64,000 nt of DNA from Takakia lepidozioides (taxonomy: Eukaryota > Plantae > Bryophyta): positions 6,944,001-7,008,000 of the forward strand of contig CM060734.1 of assembly GCA_030704615.1 (NCBI GenBank). The letters run 5' to 3'. The notes below the pieces were generated by a model. It saw nothing but the letters and a program-made list of their open reading frames with translations, was not told the origin of the DNA and did not search any database. This document shows, piece by piece, positions 7,755 to 64,000 of this stretch (within the stretch, counting starts at the first letter, position 1; every line of letters starts with the position of its first letter). A program made the position numbers and the translations under genes.

Positions 7755-7905
7755 ATCCAAAGAGGCCGTCTTCAATTTGCCATGTGTTATCTTCTGCTGG
7801 GAATCCCTCCCATTTACACAAATAGTATGTATCAACACATATCGCTCCGAAGGCGTCAAGTGATGATTGGGTTTTGATGCCGAGGATAGCTTCAATGACG
7901 AAGGC
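7755..7905 (-). other. Chromodomain within LINE copy 1 ORF
   Basis: FVIEAIL...YYLCKWEGFPAEDNTWQIEDGL fits the chromo consensus (F/Y)xVExIL...YLxKWxG...NTWExxxxL. Confidence 0.85.
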
Positions 7906-20134: not shown

Positions 20135-20389
20135 TGGCAGTGGACATGACTAGAGGCAGCTAACAGGACATGGGAGGCCAAGCTCATAGGAGTCAATACA
20201 CGAGATCCCGGGCTCAAGTTCACAGGTTGCAAGACGACGACTAACGATGGGGCAACTCTTGCACCCGACCTCTTGATCTATCGAGTTTGAGTGTAGTAGG
20301 GACAGTGGTGGAGGACTTAGTGAGGCTATAGTCACTATCACATCTTGTGGCTACCTGGACTTAGAGGGACCTAAGCACCAGCGGGCGAT

Positions 20390-21095
20390 TGTGTGGACTA
20401 GTGACTGCCATAGTGGGCAACATAGTGGCAGCTTAGTGACTGACTAGTTGTAGCCTAGTGGTTGGACTAGTGGCTGGACTAGTGGTGGACTAGTGGTATA
20501 CTAGTGTGTGGCGTGCACATGCGTTGTGTGGTTTTGGACATCGATGTAGTTGTGTAGTGATATGTATGCGCACGACAGCTGTCAAGTTATTTTACCACTA
20601 GTGTGAAACTAGCTAGAAAATAGCTAGCTTTCACATATTGACATTTGGGATTGGCCCAAGTGTCAATCCAGGGGTCAAGGCAGATTTAGGCCCTGGAGTG
20701 GTTATCTTCACGGCAAGCGCAGAAGGCTCATCTTTCTCAAGTTGAGCCTCACCGCGCCTAGCTATGGCGCCGTAGTGTGGATTCCCCATGGCGTGGGGTG
20801 CACTTGGCTTGACTTGTATTTGAGTGATGAGGTTATATATGCATGAGTTTATGCTTCAGCTTTGTGAGCTCGCATGAGCTTGTGCTTGTATTCTTCTTCT
20901 TTATCATTGTGTGGACTAATGACTGCCATAGTGGGCAGCATAGTGGCAGCCTAATGACTGACTAGTTGTAGCCTAGTGGTTGGACTAGTGGCTGGACTAG
21001 TGGTGGACTAGTAGTATACTAGTGTGTGGCGTGCACATGTGTTGTGTGGTTTTGGACAACGATGTAGTTGTGTAGCGATATGTATGTGCACGACA
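20390..21095 (+). repeat. 3' terminal A-B-A repeat of Gypsy copy 3 (A 20390-20577, B 20580-20906, A 20908-21095)
   Basis: Two 188-bp near-identical A units TGTGTGGACTA...CACGACA flank B TGTCAAG...TTATCA; same GC and T spacers as copy 2. Confidence 0.9.
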
Positions 21096-21429
21096 TCCCC
21101 TATCAGTGGAGATCATAGCTCCTGCCGTTGCAACCTTTACCAGCGCTACCCCAAAACAAGAACTATTGAAGCCACATCGCATGACTCCCCTTCCCCGCTT
21201 CAGCAAGCCCATCCTCTAGCGAGCCGAGTCCAGGGATCATCAACACAAAACGGCACCGCAACTCTCTTTGGCAGCAGCACAGATTACCAAGTTTTCCCTT
21301 GATTATATACCTTATCCCTTATATTACTGCTATCTAATTCAGGCCCTAAGACAAAATCAATGAGTCAGCATGAGCAGATCAGCACCCAAAACTTCCAACT
21401 TTGCCCACTCCCTCTCCCGCAATCTCAGC

Positions 21430-33109: not shown

Positions 33110-33290
33110 CGGCTAAAGCTTAGGGGGAAATGGCTAAACCCTAGGAGGAAATGAACTACTCTATGAGGGGGAAAAGACTATTGCCAGGGGGAAATGACTA
33201 TTCCAAGGGGGAAATGGTTATTCCTAAGGAGAATACAAGGGGAATACAAGGAAAATACGTATAGGCCCAGGGAAATACTGGAGGAATACT
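33110..33290. repeat. Degenerate repeats of about 20 bp (GGGGGAAATG core)
   Basis: Repeated gggggaaatg.cta motifs. Confidence 0.7.
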
Positions 33291-36200
33291 ATGGCATATT
33301 CTCAAGAATATTCACATGGAACTTTGAGAACCTATTGGGAACTTGGGGTGGACGAGCACAGGGCAAGATTGCAAGTAGGGGATCTTTACCAAGAAACGAG
33401 TTTCTTCAGGAACCAGGGATTCACTTGCACCAAAGCCGAGTATCCAGGGTTGAGGGAAATTGGCCAGATATTAAACATTCTGTTTGCCATGAAACAGAAC
33501 CAACAGTATCTTAGCAGATCTTTTACGGAGGAGGTTCTGAAAGCTTTGAGAGGAGAGGATGTAGCTTGGGCGGAGATGATGCACAGTGGTCTGGTGGAGG
33601 AGATGAAACGATTACAGAATACTACTGCCAAGTCCCCAATTATTGTGTCTGGCCCAATTATTGCACAGATCATCTTTGATTCTTGCTTGCTTGATGCGCA
33701 TGAACGCAAAGTAATGGGGGTATTTGAGGCAGCCACAACTGCAGTTGAGGAGCAAGGCTCTTCACAAGGTGAAAGAGGATTAGAGAGGCAGCACCAGTCC
33801 AAGAGACAGAAGAGGGACACAACTGTAATGGCAGATCCACTGACCACGAGGAACCCTCACGATGATGTTTCCATAGCTCCTGCACAGGATGGGGTGCAGC
33901 AGCACAATGGGCTGTTATTACTGGAAGCACGGCCATTAGAGAGGGAGACAGAAGTCACTTCATACCACGGCCAGCACAACAAGCTGACCAAGTTGCCCCA
34001 GTGGTAACTCAGACTGGACTTGCTATTACACCGGAACCTCTTACTGTGGAGAGAGAGGGATTGGACATCCCCACTACAGAGCAAGTAGTGGCAGAAATTG
34101 AGAGGGGCAACCTTCTCTATGAAAACTCTGGCATGGTCGGAGACCCTATGGTACCAAAGATGCAGAATCTGCCCAATGAAATCCCTGTTGTGCAGGTTAT
34201 GCCCAAACCTGTGGCGGAGGTTGAAGGGGTAAAGGGCAAGGGTATTGCAGCACCTTGTGGAAGATGAGGTTGTTTAGGAAGAAGATCTTGTGGGATCATG
34301 GCCTGATTGGTTTGTGAAACATCAAACGGTAGAGAAACAGGAAGAACAGCAGCAGGTTTTCCATGAAGACCCACAGCAGGCCATGCTTATGAGTTCCATA
34401 AGCAGGACTCTCAATCTATTGGGCACCTATGTCAAGACTCATGTTCCTTCCACTCAATTGGTAGCTTTGTGGGAGGAGCTCAAGCAAGAGCTTGAGGCAA
34501 GAATTGCCATTGAGTGTACAAACAAGGTGGATGTGGAAGCCAACCTCAAGTTGCAGAAAGAGTGACACTAAAGCTGCCCTATAGCTTGCAAAGGAAATTT
34601 TAATTGAAGCAGGTCTTGAGCAGGAGAAGTTGCATGAAGTGCATAAGTAGCAACTATACCAGATGCAGGTTCAGCATGAGAGCAAGTTGCATGAAGTGAA
34701 ATTGCTTCATACAGAATTGGAAGCAGTCCATCAAAAAATGATCATACAGTGTGCCACACTAACGACTGATCTGGAGATGGTTGCACAAGAAGTCAAGAAC
34801 CAAGCTGAGAGATGTATAACGGCGGAGACAGAGGCACTAGAGCAGGGGAAATTCATTGCAGACATGAAGGATACTATCTGTCACAATGAATATACACTTC
34901 AGCAGTTGCACCAGGTTGATGTCCAGAAGGACAGGTACATCTTTGAGTTGCAGCAAACCATCACAGTACGGGACAATGAACTTTCTGTGAGTGAAAAAGC
35001 TTGGAAAGAAGCCAATAATTTGTCAGCTACCTATGTAGCTCTGGTTGAGCCTCATGCAAAGCACATGGAGAATTTGCAAGCATACAGGCTCAAGGAGGAG
35101 CATGATCTCCGTGGTGTTACACAGGACTTGGTAGATAATCATCTTTTGCAAGAGTGGTTAATACAAGGGCCGGTGGAAGGGAAAGCACCAAGAAAGCTCA
35201 CCCAAGACGAGATGAATGATCTCAGGCTACGGGTGCAGAACATTGCCACAACCACTATAGACAATGTCTATAGTCGGATAGCTGAGTTACAGGAGGATGT
35301 AGAAGGGCTGCAGACTCAAGTGGATGACTTGAGCTCCAACATTGACAAAAGGGCCTTTGTTCCTGAGGAACAGCTCATGGCTACTTATTTGCACGCAAGG
35401 ACTTTGATTTTCCAATTTTCAGCACAGGAAGTGCAGGACTTGCCAACACCATGAGGGACTATGGCAACAACATCACAGCAACCACACCAGGTCCATAGTG
35501 TTGATACCATGGCACTGCAGCAATTACTGTCTGAGGTTTGGGGTGATGCTTCTTTTAACCCACCTACTACTCCTGCTGCACTTGAATACAATTAGGCTAT
35601 AATTCTACCCTTCAACCAAATTCCCATTGTTATGAATTTGGCTTGGAAAGAATTCAGTCCTCCAAAGTCTTTGGCACACTATTACCAGATTATGCGCATT
35701 TGGTTGCCAGTGGCAACTTCTTCCAACTGACAGACCCATTGAAAATCATCATTTCGCGCGGTATTGGTTTGAGGCAGGAACCATGCTGAAGTAGTTAATT
35801 GCCTTCTAGATTGTTCATGCATTCATTTACACCAAGACCAAGGAGGTACCTAGTTTGGTCGTGGGTTGTGGACTGTATTATGTTGCTTGTTTCACGCTAT
35901 CACATTGAGCAGCAAAAGATACAGATGAGATTTCAGACTTATTCCGGTGGGGAGCATTGGATGTTACCTTCAGTTCCACCACATACATATATGTATGATG
36001 TAAGGATCATGCTTCAAAAGGATCCCCAACTTTGTTCTTGGTTTACTTTTGCTCTGGAGAACTTGGGTCTTGACCACATTTTTCCCAAGGGGCATGAAGC
36101 CAGGAAGTGGCTACACTTCTCCAAAGTCATTGGCACACCACTCAGCTATACAGATGATGAGCTACGGGCATACACTAATCTTGCCCGCAAGAGGTTGACA

Positions 36201-36566
36201 CAAGTCTTACAATATAAGCTTCCAGACATGGTGGGCATACACTGTATGCCAGTCAGGATTCCTGCAAAGCCACCGAAGGACAGGAAACAGTACGGCCAAC
36301 GGGGGGAAGATGATTCGGATACTACTGGTTCAGTGGACGGGAATTTTGACATGGCTGAGGATTATGCGATACAAATGGCGGAGAAGAAACGACGGGGATC
36401 TCCTATGCCTGAAAAGTTACCTCCATATCAGCCTAAGGCCGGACAGTCAAATCCATCTAGTCGACAATCATCCCCACCCAGCCAGCGATATGGCTCGGGC
36501 TCACACATAGAGCCCTCCGAGGGACTCTCACCGGCAGAAGGGTGCTCGTTCACAAAGGTTTGCTGA
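33291..36566 (+). pseudogene. Large fragmented extra ORF (coiled-coil rich) upstream of the PPT of an LTR element
   Basis: Five consecutive + ORF pieces, intronless, heptad-rich middle, ending about 40 bp before the PPT; no gag/pol motifs. Confidence 0.55.
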
Positions 36567-36617: not shown

Positions 36618-37441
36618 TGTTAGAGGGCTGTCTGGGACTTAGACAGTTTTACGGGTTCTGTGGGGTACCCTTAATTTTGCGCAGACCTACGGTGGTAGAC
36701 TCACCAATACAAACCTTATGGGTGACAGACACAGGCCTTAGGGGTGGTAGACAGGCTTACACAATCAGTGACAGTCTTACACAGTTAGACACAGCTTGAC
36801 ACAACCTGTCACAGCCTGACACAGCCTAACACGGTCAGTCACAGCCTTACACAGCCTATCACAGCCTATCACAGTCTATCACAACCTGACACAGCCAGTC
36901 ACAGTCTGACACGGCCAGTCACAGCTCGGCACAGTCATAGCCCGACACAGCTTGGCACAGCCCGTCACAGCGTTCACAGGGAACGATTATCATTGGCAGG
37001 GAATGATTGTGTGGGAACGACATCTGCAGAGGGAACGTGCATTCTGTCTTGGATGACAGTTAGTTAGTTAGGTGGTTAGAACAGCTTGCAGGTAGAATAG
37101 GCAGAGTAGCAACATGGAGGGGGTCACTTCTGAGATCGCTTCTTGGACATCACTTGAGGAGATCAGGCGGAGAGCACAGGGTTGGAGATTACACAGAGGA
37201 GGAGATACGACGAGATGATGCTTGATTCATGCAAGCTGTAGAGATGCACTGTAGAGAAGATTAGAGACACCATGGCTTCGGCCTGATACATGATAGATAT
37301 TAATATGATTCCTATTTCATATTCACACCGTGTAGAGAGATATGAGTGAAGCTGTGGAATGAATGCTTGAGTAGTTGGAACATGGTAGATTGCAGAAGCA
37401 ATCTGATACTTAATCATAGACAGTGAGGTAAATTGTTAACA
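36618..37441 (+). repeat. 3' LTR (about 824 bp) with internal 10-bp ACAGCCTGAC-type repeats
   Basis: PPT GGGGAGGGATAA, then TGTTA...TAACA inverted termini; partner LTR not found in the window. Confidence 0.7.
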
Positions 37442-41323: not shown

Positions 41324-43282
41324 AGAGAGAGAGAGAGAGAGAAGACTCCGGCCAAAGCCGGCGTAACTAAGAGCCACTTCGCCTTACGGCTACTGCCCCC
41401 TTTCGGGGGTGGGCCCTATAAAGAGAACAAGTGTCCAGGGGAGGTAGTAAATATGGTAGCGGTGCCTAGGATACCCGGGGATGCCGCAGAGGGGTTGGAC
41501 TCGAGGTGTCGCTTATTGGTGAAGATGGCAGTGAGGGAGCGGAGCGCTGTGAGGTGGAGGGCTTTAAAGCATTTGTGGATCGAGGGGATAGGGATTTGAA
41601 GATTGTCGTGTAGCGCGTTTATACTGGCGATATGAATCCCACCTCTAGTACTAGCTGTGATAATTGATAGGGGGCCGGTGCGCCACCCACGCTGGCAGAT
41701 GGCGAGGAGGAGGGAGGCATATTTTTGTCGTTTCTCTAGGGTGGAGGGGGCTGGGTAGCGGTCATTACAGTATGTGAATTCAACGAAGTGAATGGTTAAT
41801 TCTGGGGAAGGGGAATTGGGTAGGGGGGCATTGATGGGTAAGCCTTGGACAAGTAGGATATCCGGGCAGAGCCGAGAGGGACAGGTACAGGGTGAGTGAT
41901 GACAAATACATGGAAGTATCCAGTGAGGGGCAGTGTGGTCAGGGGGTCGGCCTTGGTAGGTACCAGCATTGATGAGTGAGAACCATCTGTTTTATGATCT
42001 GGACATGAGAAGTTTATGGATGTGCCAAACTGCGTGATTATGGCGGTGATGCGGAGACCATGTATAACGGGGTGAATACACTGACTAAGGAGGTGGGGCC
42101 GGGTGTCACGTACTGTATGTGTATGTGAGCATAACGGGCAGTTGGGGGATGGGAATAGGCGTGGCCAAAAGATGTGCTTGCGTTGGTGTCCCATGTATTG
42201 GGCGTAACGAAATTTGAGCGTTTGTTGGATTTGCTCGTCGGTGACAGTCTTGGTGTGCCATAAGTAGTTTGACAATTTGTGGTGAAGAACTGTAGATTGT
42301 GTCCATTTTTGGATATGGGCTTTGGTATGGCTGATAGAGGCTGAGGCTTGTTTATGTGCTTCGCGTGTGAGAGTGGATTTTAGGTTACGTATGGGTAGTA
42401 GGGGGTCCTGGTACTGGGTGAATTAGCCAGAATGGGTGAGTGTGAGCAATATGGATGGGGTCGGCCGTGGGATCCAATGGGGGTTGGGCGGCCCCTGCCT
42501 GGGCGAGGAGGTCTGCGTTTTCGTTACCGGTGATACCAGTGTGGGAGCGAACTTTGAGAAAGTGTATGGGGGTGATTAATGGAAGCCGCACGGTTAATGA
42601 TAGCTGCAATGAGGTTCCGGTCTGGGTGGTGGAGGTGGCAGGAGGGGCTGGAGAGGTGGTTGCAGAGAAGAAATAGTGAGGTAAGGCTGTCTGTGAAAAT
42701 GTAGTATGGGGGGAGAAGGAGAGTGCTTCAAAGATTGCCATAAGCTCAACGCATAATATAGTGGCTGGGCCTGGAAGTCTAAGAGCTACCCCACGATTAT
42801 TAGCAGCGTGAAAAACACCGTAGCCAGCGTTAGAGCCGGATTGGGAGCCATCTGTATAGTGGGAGTGTGAGGGAGAAAATTTGAGCGGCAGACGTAGATG
42901 TGAGACCGGTGGGTCAGTAGGGGGTGGGAGAGGGGCAGGAGGAGGGCGCGGTAGCGCCCTTATCCAGGCCTTGCTTGGGTTGACTCTGGGAAATAGGGTG
43001 GGTAAAGAGCAAGATGTAGAGGGAAGATGATGTGTGTTGGGGGTAATGGAGACTTTCATCCCCCATGTGCATACGAGTCAGTAGTGTAAGGTAGAGGGGA
43101 GGGTAATGGGCGTGGAGGTGGGATGGGTGTGTTGGATAAGTAGAAGTGACGTAGTGGTGGATTCTAAGCGTCGGAGGTATTTAGGGGAGGGGAGGTTGTG
43201 TTTGTATAGTAGCTAGTTTGGTTCAAAGGTGGCTAGAAGGGTGACGCCATGGGGGAGTTGAAGAAGGGGGTGGGGGTTGTCT
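41324..43282 (-). mobile_element. LINE copy 2, 3' part: RNase H, CCHC, restriction-like endonuclease, structured 3' UTR, (CT)n tail
   Basis: HYTDGS...KVRSHTGITGNENAD; CPLC..H...C; RHN; PDILL...FVEFTY...KRQKY (PD-(D/E)xK-type RLE). Confidence 0.9.
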
Positions 43283-46200
43283 CACTACAACAAATGGGGG
43301 GGGTTTGCGACGCCAGGCCGTCGCAGCCAAACCCCGCGGGTCGCCACCTGGCCATCGCACGGGTTGATGAAGGGCAAATGGCAGCCCTTCCATGCGACAC
43401 CCAAGCGTCACCCCCCAGCGAAGGGCAGAAGGCAGCCATTTCTGGCGACGGCCGGTTGTCGCACGCCGAAAAAAAAAACTCTTTCTTGCCCTTTCTTTCA
43501 TCGCAGCCCTTTCTTGCGACGCCAGGCCGTCGCATGGTGGCATGAATGGAAAAAGGCCCCTGCGATGGCCGGGCGTCGCAAACTACCCGGTTGCCCTATT
43601 CTTGGAAAACCAAAAAATAGGTCACAGTTTGCGACGGCTGGCCATCGCCGTTTGCGACCCCAGGCCTCATAAATCCATTCAAAAAAATCGCAGTTGGCGA
43701 CGGTTGGCCGTCGCCATTTGCGACCCCTGGCCTCATAGATCCTAAAAACCGCGTCGCAAGTGGCGACGTGTGGGGGTCGCAGGAAGCGATGGCACGACTT
43801 TCTAGGTTTAGGTTTAGGGCCTTTGGGGGTTCTTAGTTTTTTTTTTTTTTTTTTTTTTTTTTCATATGGTACTGGGGTAGGGTGTTTGTTTTTCTTTATG
43901 GTTTAGCTTGTTGCTGTGGACCTTCTTGTAGATTGTGACATTCATTTTGATAATTCTCTTGATACCACATCTGTATGTGTTGCTCCAACATACTCATTGT
44001 CTCTGCCTTCTTTCTTGAAAGACTACTAGCCACAGCCATATTTGATCAATCATAGAAATAAAGTACAATATGCATGTACATGTACAATCAATCGAAGGGA
44101 TGGGTTCAATTCGGTGCGAGAATTGTTATGTAGCTTTGATTTTGTGTCTAATCAACTTGAACATCATCATCCGGAGCTTCTTCATCTTCATCAAGCTGCA
44201 AGTCTTCTTGGTCATCAGAGTAATCGACATAAATGGCCCGGCCCTCAAAAGGCACCTCCGAATCATCCTCCACCTCATTGTCAATGGCCGTGTCTTCGTC
44301 TCTTTCTCCAACATCCGTATCTTCTAGAGCTTCATCATATAGGGTCCATGATGCATTGTCTGGGGCGTCATCATCCTCTTCTACCCCCTCTACCCAACCT
44401 CCATCATTAGCATCATTATGACCAGTCTCTCCATCCACCGCAATTGTCTCACCCCATGGAGATCCGAGACCATGATAGATACGTCTTCCTCTTGGCTGAA
44501 CATGCAAAACCACCTTCCAATTCCCCCCTCTTGTTTTGTCATCGGAGAAGAAAACTTGCTCCATGTTTGAAGGCCGTGAAAAAGGCTCATCGGAGGGACG
44601 ATGAGTAGGGTTGAGCCTATCTGCATTGACGCGCATGAAACCACAATCATCTTGCACTAGTGTTGCGGAGGGCCCCACAAGATGTGGCTGGAACCACCTT
44701 CCCTTGAAGAGAAGAGGCCGGTACCTTGTATACTGAAGTTGGAGTATGCTCTCAAGCTCTCCAATGTACTCAAGTTTGCTCATAGCAGGTCGTGTATCTC
44801 CCTTGCCCCACACGGAGTCTTGCCAATATGTTGCACACAAGCCAGAATCAAAGGTTGTTTTGCACTTCATGTCAAGAGCACGAATGCGGAAATGACGACC
44901 GTGAACCCAAACCGCCGTGTATGAGGTCGCGAATTGAGAGGGGCCCCTTGCAATGTCTTGCACCAAATCTGAAACCACCTCTCCTTGAGCAACGGCATCA
45001 TAAACTGAAGTTCGGAGCCACTGTTGGAATGAACTTAGAGGCTGCAATTCCATGGGCAAATTTTGTGAAGGAACATTCCGGCGGCCCATTGCTCGTCCTG
45101 GGCGTCTAGTAACCGGCCTTGGATGGTTCCGCCTCCATGCAAACGTCTCCTCCTCTCGTTGCTGAACAAGATTATTGTATCTTGCCTCCCACTCATGTAT
45201 GGATGGGGTGTTCTTCAATATGAAGTCATGCGCTTGCTCAATCACCAAGGTCGGCAATTTTACCCTCTTCGATTTTTTGGGCAAAACAATGTCATTGGTT
45301 CGTGCATCCTCCTCTTCCTTCCACATCCGAGGGGCTTCCTCATCCACCCTTGCCATGTACTACGTGCAATAGAACATAGCTTCTTGCAATGTATACCCCT
45401 CTGCCATGCTACCCTCCGGGTGTGCCATTTGTCTTACAAATCCTTTCAAAGTCTTCATATAACGCTCAAAGAAGTACATCCACCGAGAATGAACGGGGCC
45501 GACAATCGAAGCCTCTTCCACTAAGTGCACTACCAAGTGCACTTGGATGTCAAAGAAGGAGGGAGGAAGGTGCATCTCCAACATACACATTACCTCCGCC
45601 GCCTCATTCTTCATGCGTGGAAAATCTACTTCTTCCAACTCTTTGGAGCAAATCCACCGGAACAAGCCTCCCATCTATAGATTGTCTCACAAACCTCGGG
45701 AGTCAATGTCCCACGTCCTGCAATGGGAAAGATGTCTTGCAATAGATTGTGGTAGTCATGAGACTTCAAACCATGGACCCCGTCTTCTTCGTTGAACTTC
45801 GTACGGAGGGATGACCCATAACCAGTTGGTGTTTGGACATCACTTATGGTGGCTATCACTTTATTGTATTCCTCCTTTGTCCATTGCCAAGGTGCGCGCC
45901 TATACTTCCACCGTACAACACCCTTTGGGTCCACACCATTTTGTTCAGTCCATAGATGGCGCATGCAACCCTGCTCCTCAAGCTCCTTTCTAACACCAAG
46001 AGAATCAGCCACTCCCTTCTTTGCCGGCGTGCCATGAAGAACCCGATAAAGGGACGAGCAGACATTCTTCTCAATATGCATGGGATCTAGAAGATGGCAA
46101 ATCTTCAGGTCCTACATATATCCCCACCCACAAAGACTTACACAATTTTTTTTACGTGAAAGTGACAATGCAACGCATACCAAATGTGCAATATCACATG

Positions 46201-48668
46201 CATGCATAGGGATATTGACGGTGTTTTTGTGGAATATGTACCGCCCAATATGGCAACTCGTAGAAGATTGAAAGTCGTTTCATGCCGGGGACGTCCACTT
46301 CACCGTCCGTGCCCGCATGGGCCTCCTTCCATCGGTCCTCCCAAAACTGCCCGGACGGTGTCATAGGGGGGGGACGTACTTCCTCTTTGCCATCAAACAA
46401 GTGTTTCTCTCTTCTTCTCCATCGATGGCTCATAGGAAGAAATTTGCGGTAGTTGGGATACACCATTTTGTGAAGATGGCGGGAGCTATGTGCATCAAGA
46501 TCATTGCCACAATGCAAGCATGCATGGTACCCTTTGGTGCTTAGCCCCGAGCAAACAGTTAGTCATGTACTACACATCCCGCCACATTAGCAAAAACAAA
46601 AAGTTGTCATGTGCATGGCCCATAATGCCATCTACCCCACTACGGTGCACAAGACTGTCGCCGCTACTTCAATCAATCCCAATCCTCATCGATATTATCC
46701 GGCATTGACAAGTGAATGTACGCGGGTTGTTCATGGGGAATATAATATACCTAGATAATCATGCATTGTCCAAAGCAAGATGTCTTTCATCTGAAAAGAT
46801 TGTCCAGCTATAGGGTCAAGTGAAGCATCCAATGCCGGGACCCCCCTCCATAGCTCCTTAAGTTCATCAACAAGAGGTCGCAAGTACGTGTCCATGTTTG
46901 CCACTTGTTTTTTAGGTTTACTATTTCATGAGCAGAAACCATGAGCCATGAGCCATGAGCCACATGAGCGGTGAGCCGAAGTCTAAGACACGCGGATTTC
47001 ATGAGCGGACTCCTCCAAATTTGGAAATGCAGCAGATTAAACAAGTATTAAAATAATAGTTTTTTATTTGACCTTGCTGTTTTTGGAAGTTCCAGATCCT
47101 GTAATGCGTCAAAGATACGTCGTCAGTAACAAGTCCGCTCATGGAAATGAGTGACCGTGCAACGAGAAATCCAATATACCACGGCAAAAGGACGTCGCAT
47201 ACTGGCCTTTATAGAGTATTCCGCGGTTTTACATGCCTTAACATTGGAATGAAGCTGACCCTTTTGCCGCGATTGAACCAATAGAGTCTGCACTAATAGA
47301 GTCTGCAGTACTTCACAATTCTGTCATCTTCGGGTATTCGGCGGGAAAGGTTTGCGACTCAACTGGGAAATGTGGTGTCGCATTAGGGTTCGCACGTGCG
47401 AAATTTCTGGGGGGTTTGGTGTTGGCGACGGTCGGCTCCCTGAAGGCTGGGTGCGACTATCTTGCTATGACGAAGGCCGCATCTACCAGTACCCACGACG
47501 TTACTTGGAAATGCGGCGCCGCATTTCCTTGCCGGGGGTCGAATGAGGAAAGGAAAGTTTGGGAGAGCAGAAAAACAGGAACCCTCCAACAAACAAAAAT
47601 ACAAGCACGTCGAAACAGAAGTGAATGACATAGTATTATCTTAGTTCGAGCAAAACAGGTTACTGGTAGGCAAGACATAAGTCGGACCTTTCTGTGGCCA
47701 GAGTCGGAGGTACTTACAGCAGTACAGTTCTACTATCCGAAAAGAATGGGCGTACCATTGTGTGGGGACCGCAAGCCAAGCTCATTCGTCCCCTGGATCC
47801 ATATTCATAAGAGTGTGCACCTCTTGGGGGCTCAACCCTGGTGCATGTAGGGTTTTCCGACCGGCACTTCTTTGCCTACGAGGAGGACACATCCGTCTGG
47901 GGATCCCATCTGGAAGGGCTTCAACGGAATGTGAAGGCTCCCATCGAAGCCAAAGATTCCTCGGATTCGTCGGAGTCGGAGGAAGAGACAGTGGACATTG
48001 ATGCCGAGGAGAACCCGGAATACGAGTGAGTGCAAACATTGTAAGTTTGCAAAGCCTTCTGGGTGATTTTTTGTCAAACGCATTTCCGGACTGTGGTTCT
48101 CATTGGTCTCGTGGGTGATTGTTATGTGCAGGATTCCAGGATCTGGGTCGAAACATGTAGGGCCTACACTTCCTGCCAGGAAGAATGTCCCGTTCTTTGC
48201 GAGGGCCGACTTCATGACGACCCCGGTGAAGGACTACTCCCTTCCTAGTTATGCAGCTAAACTCGCAAATACAGCGATTAGACGATGTGAGAATCCCAGT
48301 AAAGTAGAGCAGATTTTGGGGAGGACTAGGGAGGACAAAAGGATAGAGCGATGCAGACAGGGAGGACGACGACCCAACGGATGTGAGATGGTCGGTTCCG
48401 CAAAGGGAAGATGGGATTTTCGAAAGCCTGGCCAACGAGCAGTCCGCTGGACATGAGAAAAGCAATGACGGGGTGGAGGCGGAGCAGAACAGTCAAGGAC
48501 AGGACGACGATAGTGATGATTTTCAAGATTAGTAGAATTTTAATGAACTCTCTGTACATTTAAATTCTCTTCCAGATTATATAAAGGAAATTCTCTCCGT
48601 CCTTGATGTCCCCTCTCCCATGTGCTTCTCAACGACACCATCGTCCAAACCACGTCCCTCCCAAAATC

Positions 48669-49398
48669 GGAAATGCGGCACCGCATTTCCAAAACCGGGG
48701 CAAGAACAATTTTCCGTTTCATGGTTTGGACATCAGAAATTGTTCGGCCGAACGGAAATGCAGTGCCGCATTTTCGTTTTCGACATGGCAGTTTTGCCGA
48801 TTGCCAGCTCCTTCCATGGAGGTAAATGGAAATGCCACCCCGCATGCGGAGGTCGAACACGTTATTTAAATGGTGGACATGGAAATGCGGTGCCGCATTT
48901 CCATTTTGGAGATGGACGTTTTTCCAACTCCAGACCCATCGACGAAATTGCAGCTCCACATTCCATGATTCTAGACGGGAATGCGGCACCGCATTCCATT
49001 GTCCAATAAGAAATTTTGATGACGTACATGGAAATGCGGCGCCGCATTTCCAGAACGGACATCGTTGTTTGTCCAATTCCAGACCCTTGGACGGAAATGC
49101 GGCACCGCATTCCATTGTCCAATAAAAACTTTCGATTGCCAAACATGGAAATGCGGCGCCGCATTTCCAAAACAGACATCGTTGATTGTCCAATTCCAGA
49201 CCCTTCGACGGAAATGCGGCACCGCATTCCATTGTCCAATAAGAAAATTTGATGACGGACATGGAAATGCGGTGCCGCATTTCCAATTCATGTCAAGAAA
49301 TGAAATGCGGTACAACATATCCGTTACGACCACAACGGAGGAAAGGGAGCTGCCAGAAATCGCTACATGGAGAAAATGAAATGCGGTCCCGAATTTCC
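48669..49398. repeat. Array of about 13 copies of palindrome GGAAATGCGGCGCCGCATTTCC, core arranged as 116-117-bp dimers
   Basis: Copies at about 48669, 48754, 48881, 48977, 49030, 49093, 49147, 49210, 49263 and others; outliers at 47507 and about 50537. Confidence 0.92.
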
Positions 49399-49673
49399 GA
49401 GCTTCAGCATGTACATGTTTCCTTTTACTCATACATGGATTTCCTTCACCTCGGGACTCTGATATTGCTGACTTTGGTATATTCATGTGGACAGACACAT
49501 TGTAGAAATGAGACCACAAATTGTAAACAGTGGGCCAATTACGACAGTTCTTGAACACATTGAAACAGAGCACACAGAAGTGAGGTACGATGGGTTGTTT
49601 TATTGATCGAACACGGTGTCTCACATTTAGCAACTCCAGACAAATCTAAGCCCTTCCTCCTTCTACATGGGCG

Positions 49674-50252
49674 TCACCAAGTCGACGGAACTTCGATAGC
49701 CCTCAAAACAAGCTCATTACTGATGCGGCACCTGGAGGTAAACTGCAATGCGGTCGTTCTGGTGCCCTTGGTGGAGCTGATGACAATGTCATGCCCATCA
49801 ATGATACCACCATCATACATTGACAAGGTCATTGTGGGCCTCATGCGCCCGTGCGATTCGTCTTCGCAACTCGGCCGAATGTCTCCATACACTGGAAGAG
49901 CGGAGTGAACTCCACAAATATAGTTTTCCCCGGTGCCGTCCTCCCTGGTCCACTGGCAGCAGTTCCAGCGCCAATGCGAGGCCGTGCGTGATCTGTCCGG
50001 CATCCCATTCCAGCTTGGTATATCGAGGTCAACAATTTTCAGGACCCACGGACCGCATTGACCCTCGCCCTCACCTCGCTCAAAGCGGAAATAGCCCTCC
50101 AAATACTCCATTGTGCGCAAAGACTCCCGCTTGATTCCAGAAGCGTCAGTGAAAACAGAGAGCCAGACAATGATGTCTCCTGATTCTGGTTTGAACATAG
50201 CATAATCGTGGCCATGATAAGGGCAGTCATCAGGATTTCGGCGGCACGACAT
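49674..50252 (-). CDS. Unknown 192-aa protein, paralogue A
   Basis: Intact ORF, homologous along its length to 50811-51374; AATAAA downstream. Confidence 0.75.
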   Translation of the reverse strand: MSCRRNPDDCPYHGHDYAMFKPESGDIIVWLSVFTDASGIKRESLRTMEYLEGYFRFERGEGEGQCGPWVLKIVDLDIPSWNGMPDRSRTASHWRWNCCQWTREDGTGENYICGVHSALPVYGDIRPSCEDESHGRMRPTMTLSMYDGGIIDGHDIVISSTKGTRTTALQFTSRCRISNELVLRAIEVPSTW

Positions 50253-50810
50253 CCTTGAAAAAGATTAGCGGAGTACGCTCAATGACAGCAGCTCCCGGAT
50301 GGAGGAGGCAGCAACGTGGTGGCTGGAAGAAGTTCAAGCAAACGCTGCAATTCCTCACAAACACTCCAGGGCACATTTAAATCCCCCCCCCCTACAGGAA
50401 CCTGCACGGATGAAGATTGGCTGCTCCATGAATGTAGCCGTTTCAGTTTCCTTCCTTGCCATGCAAACTATGGGCAGTAAGTGTCAGGTGGGCCTATAGC
50501 CACTCGAGACGACGAAGTCCATCCCCCCTTCGATGTAAATGCGGCGCCAAATTTCCATCCGGGGGATGGACTTCGGTGGCAGATTTCAAACTATACCCCG
50601 TGGATGAGAAAGAGGTATCGGTTCATCCACCGCTGGCGTGATGAACACGTTACACGATGATTTGTGGGTACGTGGGACCCAGATGCTCCATTATTGGAGC
50701 CCGCACTGCTCGTCCGCTTCTCATCATTTCAAAAATCTAAGGGCTTCGTTGCTGTCCGCAAGGTCATTGTCATCGGCATCAAAGACGTCCTCAGGTCCTC
50801 ATTTGCAAGG

Positions 50811-51374
50811 ATGTCGTGCTTCCGGAACCGGGACGACTGTCCTTATGGAGGCTTCGATTATGCAATGTATTCGGCCACATCGGGAGACATCATTATCTGG
50901 TACACAGTTTACACAGAAGATACTGGTTTGAATGTGGAAACATTGTCCGCTTTTGAGTATATCCCAGGCCACTATGCCTTTGAGTGGGGTGACGATCTTG
51001 GTCTGAGGAGTCCGTGGCTCCTGCGCATCCTTGATTTCGATTTTCCCAGCTACGACGGGCACCCATGCAGAAGAATGCGCACTGCTATGCTGTTGCGGTG
51101 GAACTACTGCCAGTGGACGTGGGTGGACTCCATCGGACAGACGTATACTCCTGAAGGAGTGCGCTCTTCTTCTCCATTGTATGGGGACATTTGCATTGGT
51201 GTGGATGACGAAAACGTGAAGCTTTCCATATTCGATGGTGGTAGGATTGAAGGGCACGACATTGTGGTGAACATCAACAGGGGTGGTACAACGGCTGCAA
51301 TCCAGTTTACCTGGAGGAGCCCGATGACTCATGAGCTAGTTTTCAGAGCAGTCGAAGTCCCATTGACAACGTGA
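50811..51374 (+). CDS. Unknown 187-aa protein, paralogue B
   Basis: Intact ORF with the same start context caaggATGTCGTGC. Shared DDCPY, SGDII.W, PW.L.I.D, RWN.CQWT, YGDI, DGG.I.GHDIV, ELV.RA.EVP. Confidence 0.75.
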   Translation: MSCFRNRDDCPYGGFDYAMYSATSGDIIIWYTVYTEDTGLNVETLSAFEYIPGHYAFEWGDDLGLRSPWLLRILDFDFPSYDGHPCRRMRTAMLLRWNYCQWTWVDSIGQTYTPEGVRSSSPLYGDICIGVDDENVKLSIFDGGRIEGHDIVVNINRGGTTAAIQFTWRSPMTHELVFRAVEVPLTT

Positions 51375-53642
51375 CTTGTATTCAGAAGGCACAGGGCTAA
51401 AGATTTGCTTGCACAATCAGCATAGTAGACGTGCTTCAAATGCAATTCATGTGGATCAATAAAAACCTCATTGTGCCCTCTTTTGTTCTATTCTGTATCC
51501 ATCGTTCCTAGAATGCATCATTCCTCATTTCGTTTGGGATTGGGAGTGTGGGTGGATTTTGCAAGTGGCTGGTAGGCTGAAATGGGCCCTCATTCTACAT
51601 AGCAGTACCACCCTACCATTCGCGAAACATTGCCTTTCAATATGTAATTCTAGAAAACATTGCCGAACCTCCTTCATCGGGAGGTTCTTCTCCCCCTATG
51701 ACCGTGACACCCTCAACCCTATTCCCGCGGACACTCATTTCCGGAAAATAGTCCTGCTCATGTTTTTTTCGACACTTACGACTTTGCTCATGGCTCATGC
51801 CGCTCATGGCTCATGGCTCATGAAATAGAAGCCCCCCTTGTCTTTTCCCTATGAGACATTCACATCATTGTTTCAATGCTCCACCAATATGCAAATTATA
51901 CTACAAAATGAATTACACGTCTTACTCCATGATTATGTCACTCATCAATCTTGCATCCGAATTGCGTCAGAGATCAGAAGTTTAATGTAAAGTCTAAGGC
52001 AATAATAAACATGAAATGAGTACACTCATCTAGCACAATGGCAGCCAATATGATAAGGCCTTTTTTAATTGAAATATATGGAGGGATGTTGTAATTCACC
52101 ATGGTCACCGGCCAAGTGAAATGACTACATGACTGGACAGAGAATGGGTTGACCCCATCCAAGGAGAAGCCGAGGTGGTCATGTCGTGGGTCCTCCAAGA
52201 GAAAAGGCCACATCTCTTCATTATGCCTCCATGCTTGTGAATCTTGTGGCCCGCACACCTTTCCCGGGGGGCTCCGATGCGAGGCGTGCCATCTCATGAG
52301 TCTGGCCAATTCGGGGCTTCGGTACTGTGCCCTCAATCGCGGGATGATCGGAAAGTAATGCATTTTCTAGGATGAAATACCCCACGCCCCCCACATGTAA
52401 TCATCCCATTAGCACACATAATACAACACCCTTATGCCTTTCCCTTTATGCAGCCTCTCCCTCATTTGGGTGTGAATGGTCAAAACCGAACGTCGCTCCT
52501 TCCACTCCTCACTCAATCCTTCCAAAACCACAATCAGAGCTTGCATGAGTACTACTCTCTAAACCCTAAACTTTGTGGAATACACTTTACATACATTGAG
52601 AAGATTAAATAAAGTAATCTCCATGCGAGGGGGAATGGCGCTTATACCTTGCGTGGTACTTTTTTCCCTTGGACATCATCCCGATATCGGTCTTTCTTGC
52701 ACTTTGGGCACTTGGTGAGATGCGAATCCTCTCCGTAGTATAGGGTTTTATCACATGGACATGCATGAAAAATCTTACAGCCCATCCCCACAGAGTCCAA
52801 GACTTCACGCGTCTCTTTCCGCGACCGTGGCATCTTGGGTTTCAAGTGTGGAGCAAAGATATAGTCTGCAATAGTTTGCATTATGGCAGATATCCCAACA
52901 TTACTTATGCCAAATCGAATTTGAAGATTGAGCAAAAGTAAGATTGTTGAAAGTCGACTCACTTTCGCCCCTTCGTACAAGGGAGTTCTCGCCTCCCTCT
53001 CCATGTCATTTGAGGGGGCCATTTCAGGATCATCGATTGGCCGGGTTCCCTCTTCATGGGATGCATCAGCGCCCACATGATGCATTAAGAGATCCTCCAT
53101 GGCTTCCACATCCTCCTGGTTAATTCCATGCTCATTGTTGTTGTCACTGTCACTGTCACTGTCACTGTCATCGTCATCATCGTCCGGTACCATGGGGGCG
53201 GCGTCTCGCCCACGGCTCCCGCCTGATGTACTTGGGTTGTTTTCAGATGGGGTGCCAAGAGAAAAGACCGGGAAGGATGGACAAAGTCCTGATACGAACA
53301 AATGAACATAGGGACATATATTATAATGTGTCATTGCAACCATACACTTCATTATAAGCGAAATGCAAACAACAACCTTCAATGCCGTTTGTTGGGTGCA
53401 ATGGCACGAGAGGATTTTCTTTCACTAATAAACAAAAATTGGTTGATAGGGTGAATGCGTCATTGGGGGGGCAAATGATTTTGTTTGGGTTTGAAACTTT
53501 GCATGCACGTACGTTGCGCACATACATGTAATTATTGAATGACATATTTGATGCACACATGGCTCAAGCTTCATTTTTTCCTACATGTGCTTAAACATGT
53601 GTGCAACACCTGTACAAAGATCCAGCAGAAAACCGAGAGAAA

Positions 53643-53645
53643 AAG

Positions 53646-53704
<59 letters not shown>
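53643..53704. repeat. Poly(A) run of about 60 bp
   Basis: Direct observation. Confidence 0.95.
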
Positions 53705-53708
<4 letters not shown>

Positions 53709-54393
53709 CCCAACGACGCACTCACCCTTGCACCAATTTTGAATTAAATCGAATTTAAATGAATTTAAAATAAATATTTGCATTTAGAAAATATATGATT
53801 GCGGTTTTGAGGGGCATAATGATTTTATTTTTAGCTCTATTTTGTTCTGTGACAATTAGCTTTGCACCACTACATCCATGCAAAAAATGGGACAAAATAA
53901 AAATGGAAAATATATATATATGTTTCTAGGGTCACTTTTGCAGAACTCTCTATGAAGAGTGCATAAAGTTGAAGATAACTCAACTTTGGAGTGCAAATGA
54001 GAGAAGAAAATCTGGTTATGGGTCCAAATGACTTTTGTTTACTCCCAAATTTTGCACGCACATTGCATATGCTATCATTAAGCATATGGCTTGAAAATGG
54101 AATTAAAAATAAAACATCGGCAGACGAAACACAATTTTCCGTCTCTATGAGACGTAGTTGCGTTCAACACTAGAATGACCCATTGAATCAACTTGGTTCA
54201 AGCTCATATTTGGTCCACATGTGCATAAGTATGTTTAGATCACATATGCAAAGTTGCAACCCACACGAACAACAAGAATTTTCTTTACATCAATCGATTA
54301 ATCGGATGTATACAAAGTACATCATGAGAATATCTACAATGCCCCTCTACGCGATCCCTGTCTCAAAGGAACCCTATTTCTATCATACACATC

Positions 54394-55285
54394 CTACTCA
54401 CGCTGTAATCGGAGGTCCCAATCATCCCGGGAGAACTCGTATGATGCAAATAGTTCGCTGTCAGCCCTAATAGTCCTACTAGCACATGTCATCACAAACA
54501 TGTGCATCCCCTCACAGTATACTGACGTATGACCACAAAAGCTCTCATGCCCATTGCTTCGCTCGTCCCATACTACATTGGTTCTCCTAGGATGACCAAA
54601 AGAACTATTGACCAGCCCAGCAACATTGCCGAAGATGTCGGGGTCACCATCACAAAATCTGATCTCAATGGGAGATGTAGGGTAGGATGTATGGGGCTTC
54701 GAGGCGTAATGTACGGAACTCCGCGGAGGTGTAGTATGGACCGTAGTAGGGAAACAAGTCCACCATGTTGTTTCTCCGAGGAGGAACCACAATATCATTG
54801 ACCGTGAATAAACCCCGACCCATAGCAGGGTCTGTAGCGGCTCTCACAACATACCGTCTCCCCCAATACTCGAACTCCACATTTTCTCGGATGGGGGTGG
54901 GAGGGTCGAGATGATTCCCCCAACAACGAGGCTGGACGGTCCCCAGTAATATAGTCCTATGCTCTGCCATGCCAGGGAATTGGCTGGTGGGTCCCTCTCT
55001 CTCCCATTGGGGGCGAGGATCCGGCTCAGGCCGCCCAAGCCGAAGGGGAGGAAACCTAGGGCGAAGCCGACCCTCCTAGGGGTTCGGGGGGCACATGCAC
55101 GTGGAGGTGGAGGTGGAGGTGGTACTGCTGGCGGAGGAGATGAAAGTGGAGGTGGTTGAGGATGTAATGTCGGAGGTGCAGCCGGGGGTACAACGTCCGG
55201 ATCAGGTACTACGGAGGTGGATCAGGCAAAGAAACAGACCGGGGGGGGGGGGAGGCCACAATCAGGGGGACCGCCTGAGGAAACT

Positions 55286-55318
<33 letters not shown>

Positions 55319-56056
55319 TGCTCGTCGCCGGCCATAACGCCTACGACACCTACGATACCCCTCGACCCTCCGCATCTCATCTACGTGCCACTGGGGGAAC
55401 CAACTGGTCACATCGGGCACATGCTCTGGCGCAAATTCTGCAAGTAGACCGGCGCGAAATGCCTCCTATGCAATGTGATTGCGAGCTTGGGCATCAAGTC
55501 GTGGTTGCAATGTGTGTAGTGAACGACGCATCAATACTTATGTTGTAATTTTGATTCATGTATGCTTACCAATCATACTATATTATTAGATAAACCTAAA
55601 TGTACCTTAAATGAATGTTAATGAGAGGGGTGGGAAAAACACTCACCTTTGCCGCATCCGCAATCTTGTTCTTCTTGTAATGTTTTTCGACAACATGCGG
55701 TCGCCGCCTCGGTGGTCTGGTGCCGCCCAGCGGTATCTGTTCCCAACACTTAGTGCACCAACACTCAATCCTGTCGGGAGGGGGGGGGGGGGGGGGGTCA
55801 AAGGTGGACGTGGTTGGACGGGTGGCCCGCGAGGGGGCAACCCGCGGCGCGCCCGACTCAATCCCGGAGTGTCAACATCCTCCGCATCACCTGAAATTTG
55901 GCCCCGGTCCCTTCTACGATTGTGCCCGGCAGCCTGTATTGGATCAGGTGCAATGGGTGGCTCCTCGCCACGAAAAATGGTCGCTCTAGGGCCACAATCG
56001 ATATGTGGTACTACCTCCCCATCCTCGAGGGAGACGGGTCGATGTTTCCTCACCAT
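54394..56056 (-). pseudogene. SET-domain gene inside the CACTA (Pro/Arg-rich N-term, intron about 55467-55646, SET about 54420-54860; frameshift near 54680)
   Basis: MGRGLF..NDI, PYYG, GNVAGLVNSS...TN and ASRTIRADSELFASY match SET motifs GxGL, YxG, xxNHSxxPN and ELxxDY in order. Confidence 0.75.
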
Positions 56057-57334
56057 CGCATCCTAATTAACACACATCATCAACACTTTCATTTCTCAAA
56101 AACCGTTGGCAAAAAAACCCTATGCCTCAGCCTCAGGGCTTTCAAAATTGGCAACCAAAGGCGGAGCATCCCTATGGTGCTAGAGCCCAAGACAATAAAT
56201 CCTTCCTCTTGTTCTATCTTCAGGATGCCTACACCATGGAAAAATTTGTTGAGACCCAGCGCTTTGCGATTATCAGATTGAACCACATTTTGGGTATGTG
56301 AATCCTTATTACACCGTTTATCTAACCCCAAGACCCACAACCAAAACCGCCAATCCAAAACCCAGCACCATAAAAAAAATCAAACACCCTAACCCAGTAC
56401 CATATGAAAAAGAAAAAGAAAAAGAAAAACTAAGAAACCCAAAAGGCCCTAAACCCTAAACCCAGATAGGCCGGCCGTCGCCTCCTGCGACACCCTCGCG
56501 TCGCATTTGACGACGAGTTTTTTTCATTTTTTTTACCTGGGGGTCGTAACCCACGACGGACAGCCGTCGTGGGGGGCGACGTGTTTTTATTTATTTATGG
56601 GGCCGGGGGTCGCAAGCAACAACGGCCGGCCGTCGCAAATATCATTTTTACATTTTAAAAAAAAGGCGGGGCGCAGGCGTGCGACGGCCGGGCGTCGCAC
56701 GTAGGCGCCGCGCCTTTTTTTTTCCCTAAGTGCTTGAAGCATCTCTTTCCCCTCCCGTTTTCGTTTGTTCTTTGGGAGAGAGGTAGTTCAGAGAGTGGGG
56801 TTTAGGGTGGAGGAGAAACGCACCTGCTGCTGAGCCCGAGGTGATTGCAAGGCCCCAAGGAGTTTGCCCCAACGCCGCTCCAACGCCCAAGGTAAGCACC
56901 GCCTCCTCCCTCTCTTTTTGTCTTGCTTTCTTGCCCTAAGCACGGGCTGATGTCTCTCTCCCCTGTGTGGTAGGAATGCCGCGCAGAGGCGCGACCTAAC
57001 GAGCTGAAGAGAGAGAGAGCCGTGGTGAGCGGGGGAGAGATGCCCTACAGTGCGGGGACCCATGCAGCTGGCAGCCGCGACAGCACCGCAGCAGCTCGCT
57101 TCAAGCTCCAGCAGCAGCAGAGGTACGTCAGGGAAATTGCACTCTCCCTTTCCTCTCTGCTTCTGTTTACTGCTCAAAGGTAGTCTTCCTGCTTTGAGTT
57201 TAAATTTAGGTCTGGTGCCAAGAGTAGGATAGACCCTTGAGCGCATCCATGATGTCCTCCCCCATGTCACAGACTGGAAACAGGTTCAGGGAAGTTTTCT
57301 TCCTAACTTCCTTTTCATCGGACAATTTTCTGAT

Positions 57335-61517: not shown

Positions 61518-64000
61518 TCTAGAGGCCTTTGCTGTGTAAGTAGGAGAATAGTACAGGCAGAGGGGGAGGAGTGGGCAGCAGTACGAGCCCATTGGAGGGC
61601 TTCTTGTATTTGGGAGTCAGGAGGATGAGCAAAGCCGCGACCGGACCACCTGTGTTGGGTGGCAAGACATGTGGCGCCAAAGATTATGGTGTGGGCTGGC
61701 ATATGAGGTAAGTTCCATGGGGCACGTGAGTGGGCTAGAGTAGTAGGAGTGAGTAAGTTGGAAGGAGGAGATTAAGAGGCTAGACAGTTCTCTGGGGATA
61801 GTACTGTGAGTGTGTGCTTGTATTAGTTTGGATTGGACGCGGGGTTTTTTGGAGGGGATGTCCTTAAGGTATCGGTCCAATAGCCAGCAGATTTCAGTAG
61901 CGAAATCCTGTCTGGGTGGCAGTATCTGATATGCCTGTGGGTTAGGAGTAGAGTATTTATGCCAGAGCCACGCTAGCCAATCATTGGGGATGAGGCCAAT
62001 GTATCGGCCGCTGTGGGCGTAGATTTTTGACCGTTGAGGGCCCTGACAGATTAAGGGGGAGTCGTGGGAAATGTCTTTATCAGGGTTACGTTCGATAGTG
62101 TTGATGTGAATGTGAGGAATGGCGAGCGGGTAGGGAATGTTGTGGGCATCTGTGAGTTGTGCCTGGGAGACATGTTGCTGGTGAGTGTGTGTCAGGTAGT
62201 TAATGTTGGTACGTTTATGGAACGCAGTAAGGAGGGCGAGGTTGTGGATGGGGTCACAGTCGTCATGTGAACCAAAGAGGTCGTCCTCAATTTGCCAAGT
62301 GTTGTCATCTGAGGAAAAACCGGCCCATTTGCATAGGTAGTACGTATCCAGACATGTAGCGCCAAACGCGTCAGTTGATGTCTGGGTTCTGACCCCGAGA
62401 ATGTCTTCAATAATAAAGGCGGTGGAATTGTTAGGATCGGCACCAAAAGTAGGAGAACACGGCGGGGGGGAGGGGGGGATTATGTCTACCTCGGTGCTGT
62501 AAGAAGTAGCGGAGAGGGTGGGGGAGGTTTGAGTGTGCGAGTGAAGGGGTGGTGGGCTGGCAAGGTCATGACTACGGGTCTGGGTATGCGGTGAGGAGTA
62601 GGAGGGGGAGGGGGCTGTGGCGCAGGGGAGAGTGTCAATGGTACCAGTATCCTCGGCATGAGAGGATTTAAGCATTTGTAGGATAGAGGGGGCAGGGGCG
62701 GTACGAAAAGCGGGGAGTAGATCCTGCGGACTGTGGGGGAAAAGAAGACAGGGTAGGTCGCATTCAAGGGTACATGAGGCCGATGGGTGGCAAAATAGGG
62801 TACGGAGGTGGTTAAGGAATCTGCAGGTTTTGGGAGTGGCTCTGGAGTGTTTAAGGGTGAATTCTATGAGGGTCAAGAGGCAGTTGCCGGTGGCGGTGGT
62901 GAGCTTGGTGAGGGTCGTGATGTGTCGTCCTCTGAAATATTTGATGATAAGTATCTTTTGGCGGGGGAACTTGCGTTCGAATTGGGAGAGGAAAGGGCTC
63001 GTATGCCAGGCCTGTTCGAGGGGAGATATGGATTTAGGATAATCAGGGAGATCGGTTTGCACACTCGTTTTCATCTGGCGGAGTATGAATAGGGAGCGGG
63101 CAGTAGGGGAATGGAGACAAGACTGTGAGTGGAGGAAAGGTAGTGAGTGAAGTCCATTATACTTGGAGGCCAGGTGTTTGAGTAGCCCGCAGTAGATGAG
63201 ACCTAGACGGCCCGGGTCGTTGAGGGCTTCGAGTAGTTGGGAGCCAAGAGTGCGCGAGTATGATATTATTAAGAGACTAGTACCGATGCCATAGCTGTCC
63301 GTGGGGAGTTGAGTGAAAGCATTGGGAGTGCTAGTTGGGAGACCACAAATGCGCTTAGTGAGTTGGATAATTTGTCTGTCGATCTGGGTGATGTCAGGGA
63401 GGGAGAAGGGAGCCGCATCGAAGGAGTATTGGACCTGTGGTCTTAGGACGGATTCTATGAGGGAGAGTTTGGGCCTGATGGCTATGGGGGCTTTGAGGAG
63501 AGCCAGGCTTTTATTAGTTAGTTTGGTGAGTGTGGCGATTTTTTGTACATGCCATGTGAGCGAGGGGACAAGTTGAATACCTAAGTATGTGTAGGGTTCA
63601 TCAAGGCCTAGGAAGGGAAATGGTTTGTTCTGGTATTGGATGTATAGTTTGCAGTGTGACGCAATAGAAGATTTGGTAAGCTTACTGCGGTGGGTAGCCG
63701 CGGTGATGGGCGCATTTATGAAGACTTAGTTCCATTCCAGACCATTGGTTAAAGCGTGATAGTTTTTCAACTTGCCGGTTGAGGTGTTGGGGTTTGTGCG
63801 CAAGGATGGCAAGGTCATCCGCGTAAGCGGCAGCATAAATTTTGTTTGAGGAAGTTTTGTATTGGTATCCAAGTTTGCCACGTGCGATCCATCTGAGCAA
63901 GGGTTCAAGGAAGATGATAAAGAGGTAAGGACTAAGGGGGTCGCCTTGGATAGTGCCGCGTAGAATCGGGATGGGAGGGGTGGAACCATAATATGAGCTT
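61518..64000 (-). mobile_element. LINE copy 2, middle part: RT C-term, chromodomain (about 62270-62420), PCIF1-like domain (about 61535-62000); continues off the right edge
   Basis: QGDPLSPYLF, YADDL, YTYLG; FIIEDIL..YYLCKWAGFSSDDNTWQIEDDL; FATEICWLLDRY..YYSSPLTC..IFGA..GFAHPPD. Confidence 0.9.

Follow-up and report, generated by a model that had tools for sequence, protein, structure and literature searches.

Described anti-silencing systems of transposons are few and context-specific (PMC12973397). In one such case, that of the Arabidopsis VANDAL elements, VANC proteins bind their motif and bring about a loss of DNA methylation in trans. The recognized motifs are 8–9 bp long, non-palindromic, and located in non-coding DNA, and the VANC proteins contain DUF1985 or DUF287 domains (PMC5735166); VANC has furthermore been described as MAIN-like in structure and as dicot-specific (PMC13547354). 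Other Mutator elements encode accessory proteins of a different kind, such as MURB of maize MuDR, the product of a small gene beside the transposase gene, which is needed in trans (PMC12973397). Mutator-like elements (MULEs) generally generate target-site duplications (TSDs) of 9–11 bp (PMC4334395), a feature shared by the non-autonomous Pack-MULEs, which carry non-transposase coding cargo that usually consists of recognizable host-gene fragments.

The locus described here lies in the window, i.e., the whole stretch of 64,000 nucleotides of Takakia lepidozioides DNA that was analyzed, and consists of a nested Mutator-like element with two paralogous open reading frames, ORF A and ORF B (Table 1). 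Analogous to VANDAL elements, a family-specific motif is arrayed in the non-coding DNA of the element. However, VANC genes contain introns; A and B stand head-to-head and encode short, acidic proteins that are predicted to be beta-rich and have no VANC domain; moreover, the motif is a 22-bp palindrome, and this copy has no transposase. Like MURB, A and B would be small accessory genes in a Mutator element, but MURB is single and adjacent to the transposase gene, while the element here has two paralogs, probably a third gene, and an array of palindromes in its interior. Contrary to typical Pack-MULE cargo, A and B have no recognizable donor in the protein sets searched, and their frames are kept in the family.

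A and B represent a novel family of proteins, maintained by selection in an element that has spread successfully, and we consider it probable that they are accessory genes selected by the element itself. Such a selected orphan pair, accompanied by a private array of motifs and present in a land plant distant from the sequenced seed plants, offers a test of whether anti-silencing has evolved more than once. Polycomb-type silencing is reported to repress transposons in bryophytes (10.1101/2022.10.24.513474); if A and B read repressive histone marks, they would represent a transposon-borne counter to silencing of this type and possibly a sequence-specific tool for epigenome editing.

Table 1. Positions in the window of the nested element, its genes and motifs, and the outer element.
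Feature	Position	Strand	Basis or remark
Outer CACTA-like element with broken Tnp2	43283..56740, right end approximate	(-)	CACTA at 43283
Left TSD copy, CTTGTTTTTT	46904..46913		Longest direct repeat at the ends with at most 1 mismatch, 10 bp
Nested Mutator-like element, 4,923 bp, transposase-less copy, within the outer CACTA-like Tnp2 gene	46914..51836		TSD, joints
Left end: short imperfect inverted repeat and 6 CATGAGC subterminal repeats	46914..47006
Single perfect palindrome copy, upstream of putative third gene	47507..47528
Putative third gene C	47681..48532, bounds approximate	(+)	Open frames, GT..AG ends by eye
Array of 10 palindrome copies, GGAAATGCGGYRCCGCATTTCC, downstream of ORF A	48669..49398
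Likely poly(A) signal of A, GATCAATAAAA	49598..49608	(-)	DNA comparison of A and B
ORF A, 192 aa from the ATG first chosen; acidic; no known family	49674-50252	(-)	True start may lie upstream
Eight codons upstream of the ATG of A, codon-like match to those of B	50253..50276	(-)	Sequence comparison
63-bp inverted repeat with a palindrome copy at its center	50513..50575
Matching eight codons upstream of the ATG of B	50787..50810	(+)	Sequence comparison
ORF B, 187 aa from the ATG first chosen; paralog of A	50811-51374	(+)	True start may lie upstream
Likely poly(A) signal of B, GATCAATAAAA	51454..51464	(+)	DNA comparison of A and B
Right end: short imperfect inverted repeat and 6 CATGAGC repeats in opposite sense	51756..51836
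Right TSD copy, CTTGTCTTTT	51837..51846		Pairs with the left copy

The nested element, its family, and its surroundings

The preliminary description assigned the element to the Mutator-like class, an assignment that is supported by its inverted ends, a TSD of 10 bp with 9 of 10 positions identical, and an empty site. In X1 and X2, two runs of a single sample that may be the source of the window itself, contigs connect 46909–46911 with 51843; the empty site therefore exists as DNA. The summed contig depth, which is not taken as copy number, rises at the element borders in all three of the three DNA runs, and the step is also present over the left part of the element, a part that was unused in finding the runs. 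X2 contributes 4,875 contigs to 1.9 kb, and 30 of 30 bins are covered by another run that comprises just 1.75 million letters. Such contig abundance fits a high-copy repeat, and the empty site together with thousands of variant contigs shows that the element belongs to a multi-copy mobile family.

The term transposase-less, also taken from the preliminary description, applies to this copy, since none of its 83 frames of at least 40 aa matches a transposase family; however, other copies carry extra sequence at 47849/47851, and this addition at 47850 makes a longer form of the element possible. The CpG observed/expected ratio of the element is 0.86 (0.79 without the array) vs 0.29–0.74 in eight other segments, which fits either protection or merely youth. 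CG sites account for 10 of the 14 C>T/G>A changes examined in this copy, and such CG-methylation damage indicates that this copy has not been lastingly protected; it is decaying.

The ends of the outer CACTA-like element show a 76% inverted match over 277 bp, and its Tnp2 is represented in Pfam by Transposase_21 (51974–52363), DUF4218 (45360–45674), and DUF4216 (within 44148–45356). The outer element also contains a frame-shifted ORF at 54397–55075 (-), neither piece of which has a Pfam or PDB match; by eye, its words resemble those of a SET domain. Elsewhere in the window, 19001–20131 (+) encodes the integrase of a retrotransposon and, behind it, a PHD finger (Pfam rve and PHD); two related LINE-like elements with a chromodomain are located at 7189–8181 (-) and 61620–63074 (-), a reverse transcriptase at 9315–9968, and a piece of RNase H at 42388–43059, while long inverted repeats of 11-bp CACTAG-type units (10391–11576 and 20287–21098) enclose approximately 9 kb of retrotransposon sequence. 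The long ORF run at 33228–36566 (+), partly coiled-coil, with no Pfam family above the cut-off and a CpG ratio of 0.29, is probably an old unclassified element and is followed by a 10-bp tandem array at 36731–36971. A host gene that encodes a UBA-like domain of the At5g58720 type has its first exon at 22781–23923 (+).

Coding frames of the gene pair and their maintenance

ORFs A and B had been described as homologous but well diverged, with 192 and 187 aa, and their proteins indeed share 94 of 193 aligned residues (49%; E 1e-63). They are oriented head-to-head across a spacer of 558 bp, and no third copy of A/B is found elsewhere in the window. The similarity of their DNA begins 25 bp upstream of both ATGs, which agrees with the shared start context noted earlier. 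At the opposite ends, an 11-base word containing AATAAA, GATCAATAAAA, follows the stops of A and B by 70 and 84 bases, respectively, and the score of the A/B 3′ alignment was reached by 5 of 1,000 shuffles. The claim of a shared 3′ signal thus stands for this 11-mer, which is present behind both genes, whereas the 12-mer originally quoted occurs only behind B. Both genes appear to be intronless, as judged by their open frames.

Runs X8 and X9 are guessed to be RNA. In these runs, the pieces that match ORF A are terminal parts of long, otherwise unrelated contigs, a single contig of 477 bases maps to ORF B, and X8 also covers the broken Tnp2; their contigs are counted neither for nor against transcription of A/B. 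A long contig in each of X8 and X9 terminates in part of ORF A, starting at 49981 (49981–50079) and with an identical flank; these contigs represent a truncated copy located elsewhere. Single low-depth contigs of X2 swap strand between ORF A and ORF B at 49759/51293, 49974/51061, and 49988/51054, possibly through rare recombination between the inverted paralogs.

It is conceivable, though short of probable, that the true A/B genes are longer and start upstream of the chosen ATGs. The eight codons preceding the two ATGs match at 6 of 8 residues and differ at 7 bases, with identities of 6/8, 7/8, and 4/8 at the three codon positions; random placement of the 7 differences does as well in 3,822 of 100,000 trials, for a segment that was chosen post hoc. 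In-phase or near-phase ATGs are present at 50604 and 50376. Most of the family lacks the in-frame stop at 50265–50267, which lies five codons before A and reads as Tyr in 95% of the X2 depth, and the stop at 50658 before B is missing from other copies, as seen from loose contig ends. Counting against longer genes are TATA-like words at or just before the ATGs at 50604 and 50376 and one contig that lacks 15 bases at 50600. With real starts upstream, neither gene would be intact in this copy, although the family would keep both open; the description of the pair as intact therefore holds only from the ATGs first chosen.

The open frames were originally set against the broken genes nearby. The frames are open, but the broken Tnp2 pieces belong to the outer element, so this contrast is not like for like. 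Over 185 codons, A and B differ with a pN of 0.31, a pS of 0.45, and a dN/dS of 0.57, and pN reached pS in 3 of 1,000 bootstrap replicates. Neutral simulations, in a model that leaves out indels, left both frames stop-free in 1 of 2,000 and 0 of 2,000 cases. All six family indels listed are located outside the ORFs (chance 0.004), and no stops occur among the 27 ORF variants that are included in the 40 listed of 148 rows of family variants. The changes private to this copy, among those listed, comprise 12 that alter an amino acid and 7 that are silent, a proportion that looks close to neutral, and at 6 of the 12 altered positions the family holds the residue of the paralog. The private changes, together with the pattern of variants, indicate stronger constraint on the family than on this copy, which is drifting.

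The near-neutral private changes are what would be expected if A and B were neutral leftovers that remained open by chance. This reading is scarcely credible for the pair as a whole and is largely refuted by the simulations, by pN being lower than pS, and by the avoidance of the ORFs by indels. The preliminary description had named neutral evolution as the alternative to its reading, and the dN/dS of 0.57 speaks otherwise: A and B are kept open by selection.

Relationships of the A and B proteins

Protein searches with B and with the A/B alignment (lengths 102–336 covered) revealed no homologs at E 0.01. Two HMMER matches in 1.84 billion representatives are sums of weak Ig-type repeat matches without pairwise support and were dismissed as artifacts. 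Pfam yields no family for A or B, PHROGs and NCBIfam yield none of note, the best E-values against PDB sequences are 0.39–0.79, and neither protein searches of viral and metagenome contigs nor a search of phage genomes recovered A or B. The best ESM Atlas scores, 0.85 and 0.78, are leads only; shuffled proteins often reach 0.84–0.85. A relationship to the DUF4216 region of the window was rejected, with a probability of 0.4%. As the preliminary description had supposed, A and B thus fall outside ordinary host families in Pfam, the PDB, and the 1.84 billion representatives. Membership in the VANC family finds no support in the sequences, since neither DUF1985, DUF287, nor any other Pfam family matches A or B. 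Orphan status alone is not rare, given that a recognizable domain is reported in only a third of transposon ORFs (PMC13547354).

An origin as captured host genes, passively carried in the manner of Pack-MULE cargo, would attribute the observed constraint to the host past of A and B or to a benefit for the host. The host gene in the window finds its best match at 41% identity over 27% and another at 30%; one match is labelled Gb_35616, a prefix that we take to denote Ginkgo. The host's own proteins seem to be absent from the searched protein sets, so a lineage-specific host donor is possible. Capture by Pack-MULEs is moreover described as common, with some cargo under selection (PMC13317346). 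However, beyond the two repeat artifacts, no relative exists among the 1.84 billion representatives, which indicates that A and B are no conserved plant family. They are also of whole-domain size, have their own 3′ signals, and are both avoided by the family indels, while captured pieces are usually non-functional fragments (PMC13317346). Capture is therefore rather unlikely, and selection by the element itself remains the preferred explanation.

Foreign or selfish cargo, such as a gene gained through horizontal transfer or a poison-antidote pair favoring its carriers, would be in keeping with intronless frames without plant relatives, and the top ESM Atlas rows are unnamed bacterial and phage clusters, with scores of 0.84–0.85 that lie at the level of shuffled proteins. 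Such an origin is nevertheless highly improbable in view of the lack of matches in PHROGs, NCBIfam, phage genomes, and viral or metagenome contigs, and a poison-antidote pair would presumably gain little in a dispersed multi-copy family.

The proteins are both soluble, with a pI of 5.5 for A and 4.6 for B, and contain more acidic than basic residues and no basic cluster, which argues against direct DNA binding. Their AlphaFold2 models consist mostly of strands but are unreliable (mean pLDDT 36 and 40). Fold searches with these low-confidence models reached best Z-scores of 5.5 and 4.0, which reflect just common strand arrangements; Foldseek returned no match at E 0.001, and no BAH or VANC entry is among the fold matches listed. 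Lipocalin and jelly-roll folds were also considered and are unsupported by the models.

A further lead comes from the order of conserved words in A and B, which resembles that of a BAH domain carrying an insertion behind its first strand. Four loose BAH-type motifs are present in order in both proteins and in none of 200,000 shuffles of each; they were fitted after the sequences had been seen and hence constitute a lead only. The alignment of A/B to BAH domains requires an insertion of about 30 residues. Scans with a short BAH motif gave 2, 0, and 34 matches, all 36 of which look like chance by eye; no BAH match to A/B passed the HMMER filters in Pfam or PDB sequences, and none appeared among the ESM Atlas features.

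BAH readers such as SHL, EBS, and AIPP3 hold histone tails in a cleft of negative charge that contains an aromatic cage (PMC13068663, PMC6013494), which in SHL is formed by Tyr41, Trp63, and Tyr65 (PMC6013494). A and B resemble these readers in being predicted to be beta-rich, in their negative charge, and in aromatic residues at plausible cage positions. They contain invariant Trp/Tyr residues, including two invariant Trp residues 27–28 residues apart in an alignment whose register is unproven; the corresponding spacing in the SHL cage is 22 residues. Contrary to SHL, A and B have no third aromatic, and the putative third cage position is occupied by Cys in A and, for B, in the majority of the family. 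In the literature searched, coverage of which is incomplete, there is no report of a transposon-encoded stand-alone BAH protein or of a paired-gene element like A/B. On these grounds, a BAH-like fold of A and B is doubtful.

The palindromic motif and a proposed role for A and B

The 22-bp palindrome GGAAATGCGGYRCCGCATTTCC occurs in 12 copies in the window at up to 3 mismatches, all 12 of which are inside the nested element, vs none in 100 shuffles. No copy is situated within ORF A or B, and the array is confined to non-coding DNA. The palindrome was not found among viral and metagenome contigs, and the Rfam matches in the array are far under the gathering scores and were set aside as generic hairpins. 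The copy reported earlier in the A/B spacer was located at 50535–50556; it has 3 mismatches and is separated from the ATGs by 294 and 266 bp. Since this copy is the center of an inverted repeat, the pair was probably born by inverted duplication around it and is probably controlled from it; the 63-bp inverted repeat is likely to be the shared control site of a two-way promoter.

A third, broken gene is also likely to be present in the nested element, judging from its reading frames. This putative gene C is acidic, apparently intron-containing, and convergent with A across the array; loose contig ends occur in its region at 47849/47851 and 48403, and it has no match in Pfam or the PDB. It is the best candidate for a palindrome-binding partner of A and B.

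The analogy to VANC proposed in the preliminary description can be retained for the VANDAL-like layout of selected orphan genes and a private non-coding motif array, but not for family membership or direct DNA binding. An A/B heterodimer that binds the palindrome with one half-site for each protein, as direct VANC-like anti-silencing proteins, would suit the presence of two paralogs, the two-fold symmetry of the site, and the position of one site between the starts, and a start at 50604 could provide B with a basic N-terminal extension. This arrangement is nonetheless quite improbable considering the acidity of both proteins, their lack of a basic cluster and of a VANC-type domain, and the short, non-palindromic form of the known VANC motifs (PMC5735166).

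We propose, as a tentative model, that A and B keep the copies of the family expressed and mobile through chromatin at the 22-bp palindromes. Initially, an inverted duplication around a central palindrome would have produced the pair and its two-way promoter. A dimeric sequence-specific protein would then occupy the palindrome, for which a protein encoded by gene C or the transposase of an autonomous partner is likelier than the acidic A and B. A and B would in turn be brought in as adaptors, acidic and rich in beta structure, that oppose silencing, perhaps through a BAH-like methyl-lysine pocket, and copies with working genes would multiply more, resulting in the selection seen. An anti-silencing or activating role of A and B is accordingly put forward as a working assumption that may or may not hold, at a lower level of confidence than their selection by the element. 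The most specific version, in which a co-regulated pair of stand-alone, BAH-like readers of histone marks, encoded by a non-autonomous Mutator-like family and recruited to its 22-bp palindrome, protects the family against H3K27me3/H3K9me2 silencing and forms a second, independent anti-silencing system outside flowering plants, is improbable at present.

The same evidence of selection by the element would be expected if A and B were transposition cofactors similar to MURB, which bind or tether a partner transposase, with the palindromes serving as transposase or promoter sites and playing no role in silencing. MURB binds MURA, MULEs are reported to encode diverse accessory proteins (PMC12973397), and a MULE transposase is itself described as able to activate cognate copies (10.64898/2026.08.24.746577). 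However, A and B have no sequence match to described accessory proteins, and the motif at the center of the A/B promoter is explained no better by a cofactor than by a regulatory role; a cofactor function is unlikely, and the adaptor model is the one we favor.

Beyond this element, contigs end loosely at 50532 and 50568, with 25 contigs each, where the palindrome core is found in other flanks. The core of the spacer palindrome (50532–50569) continues into these flanks, and the motif appears to recur in further element families or regions.
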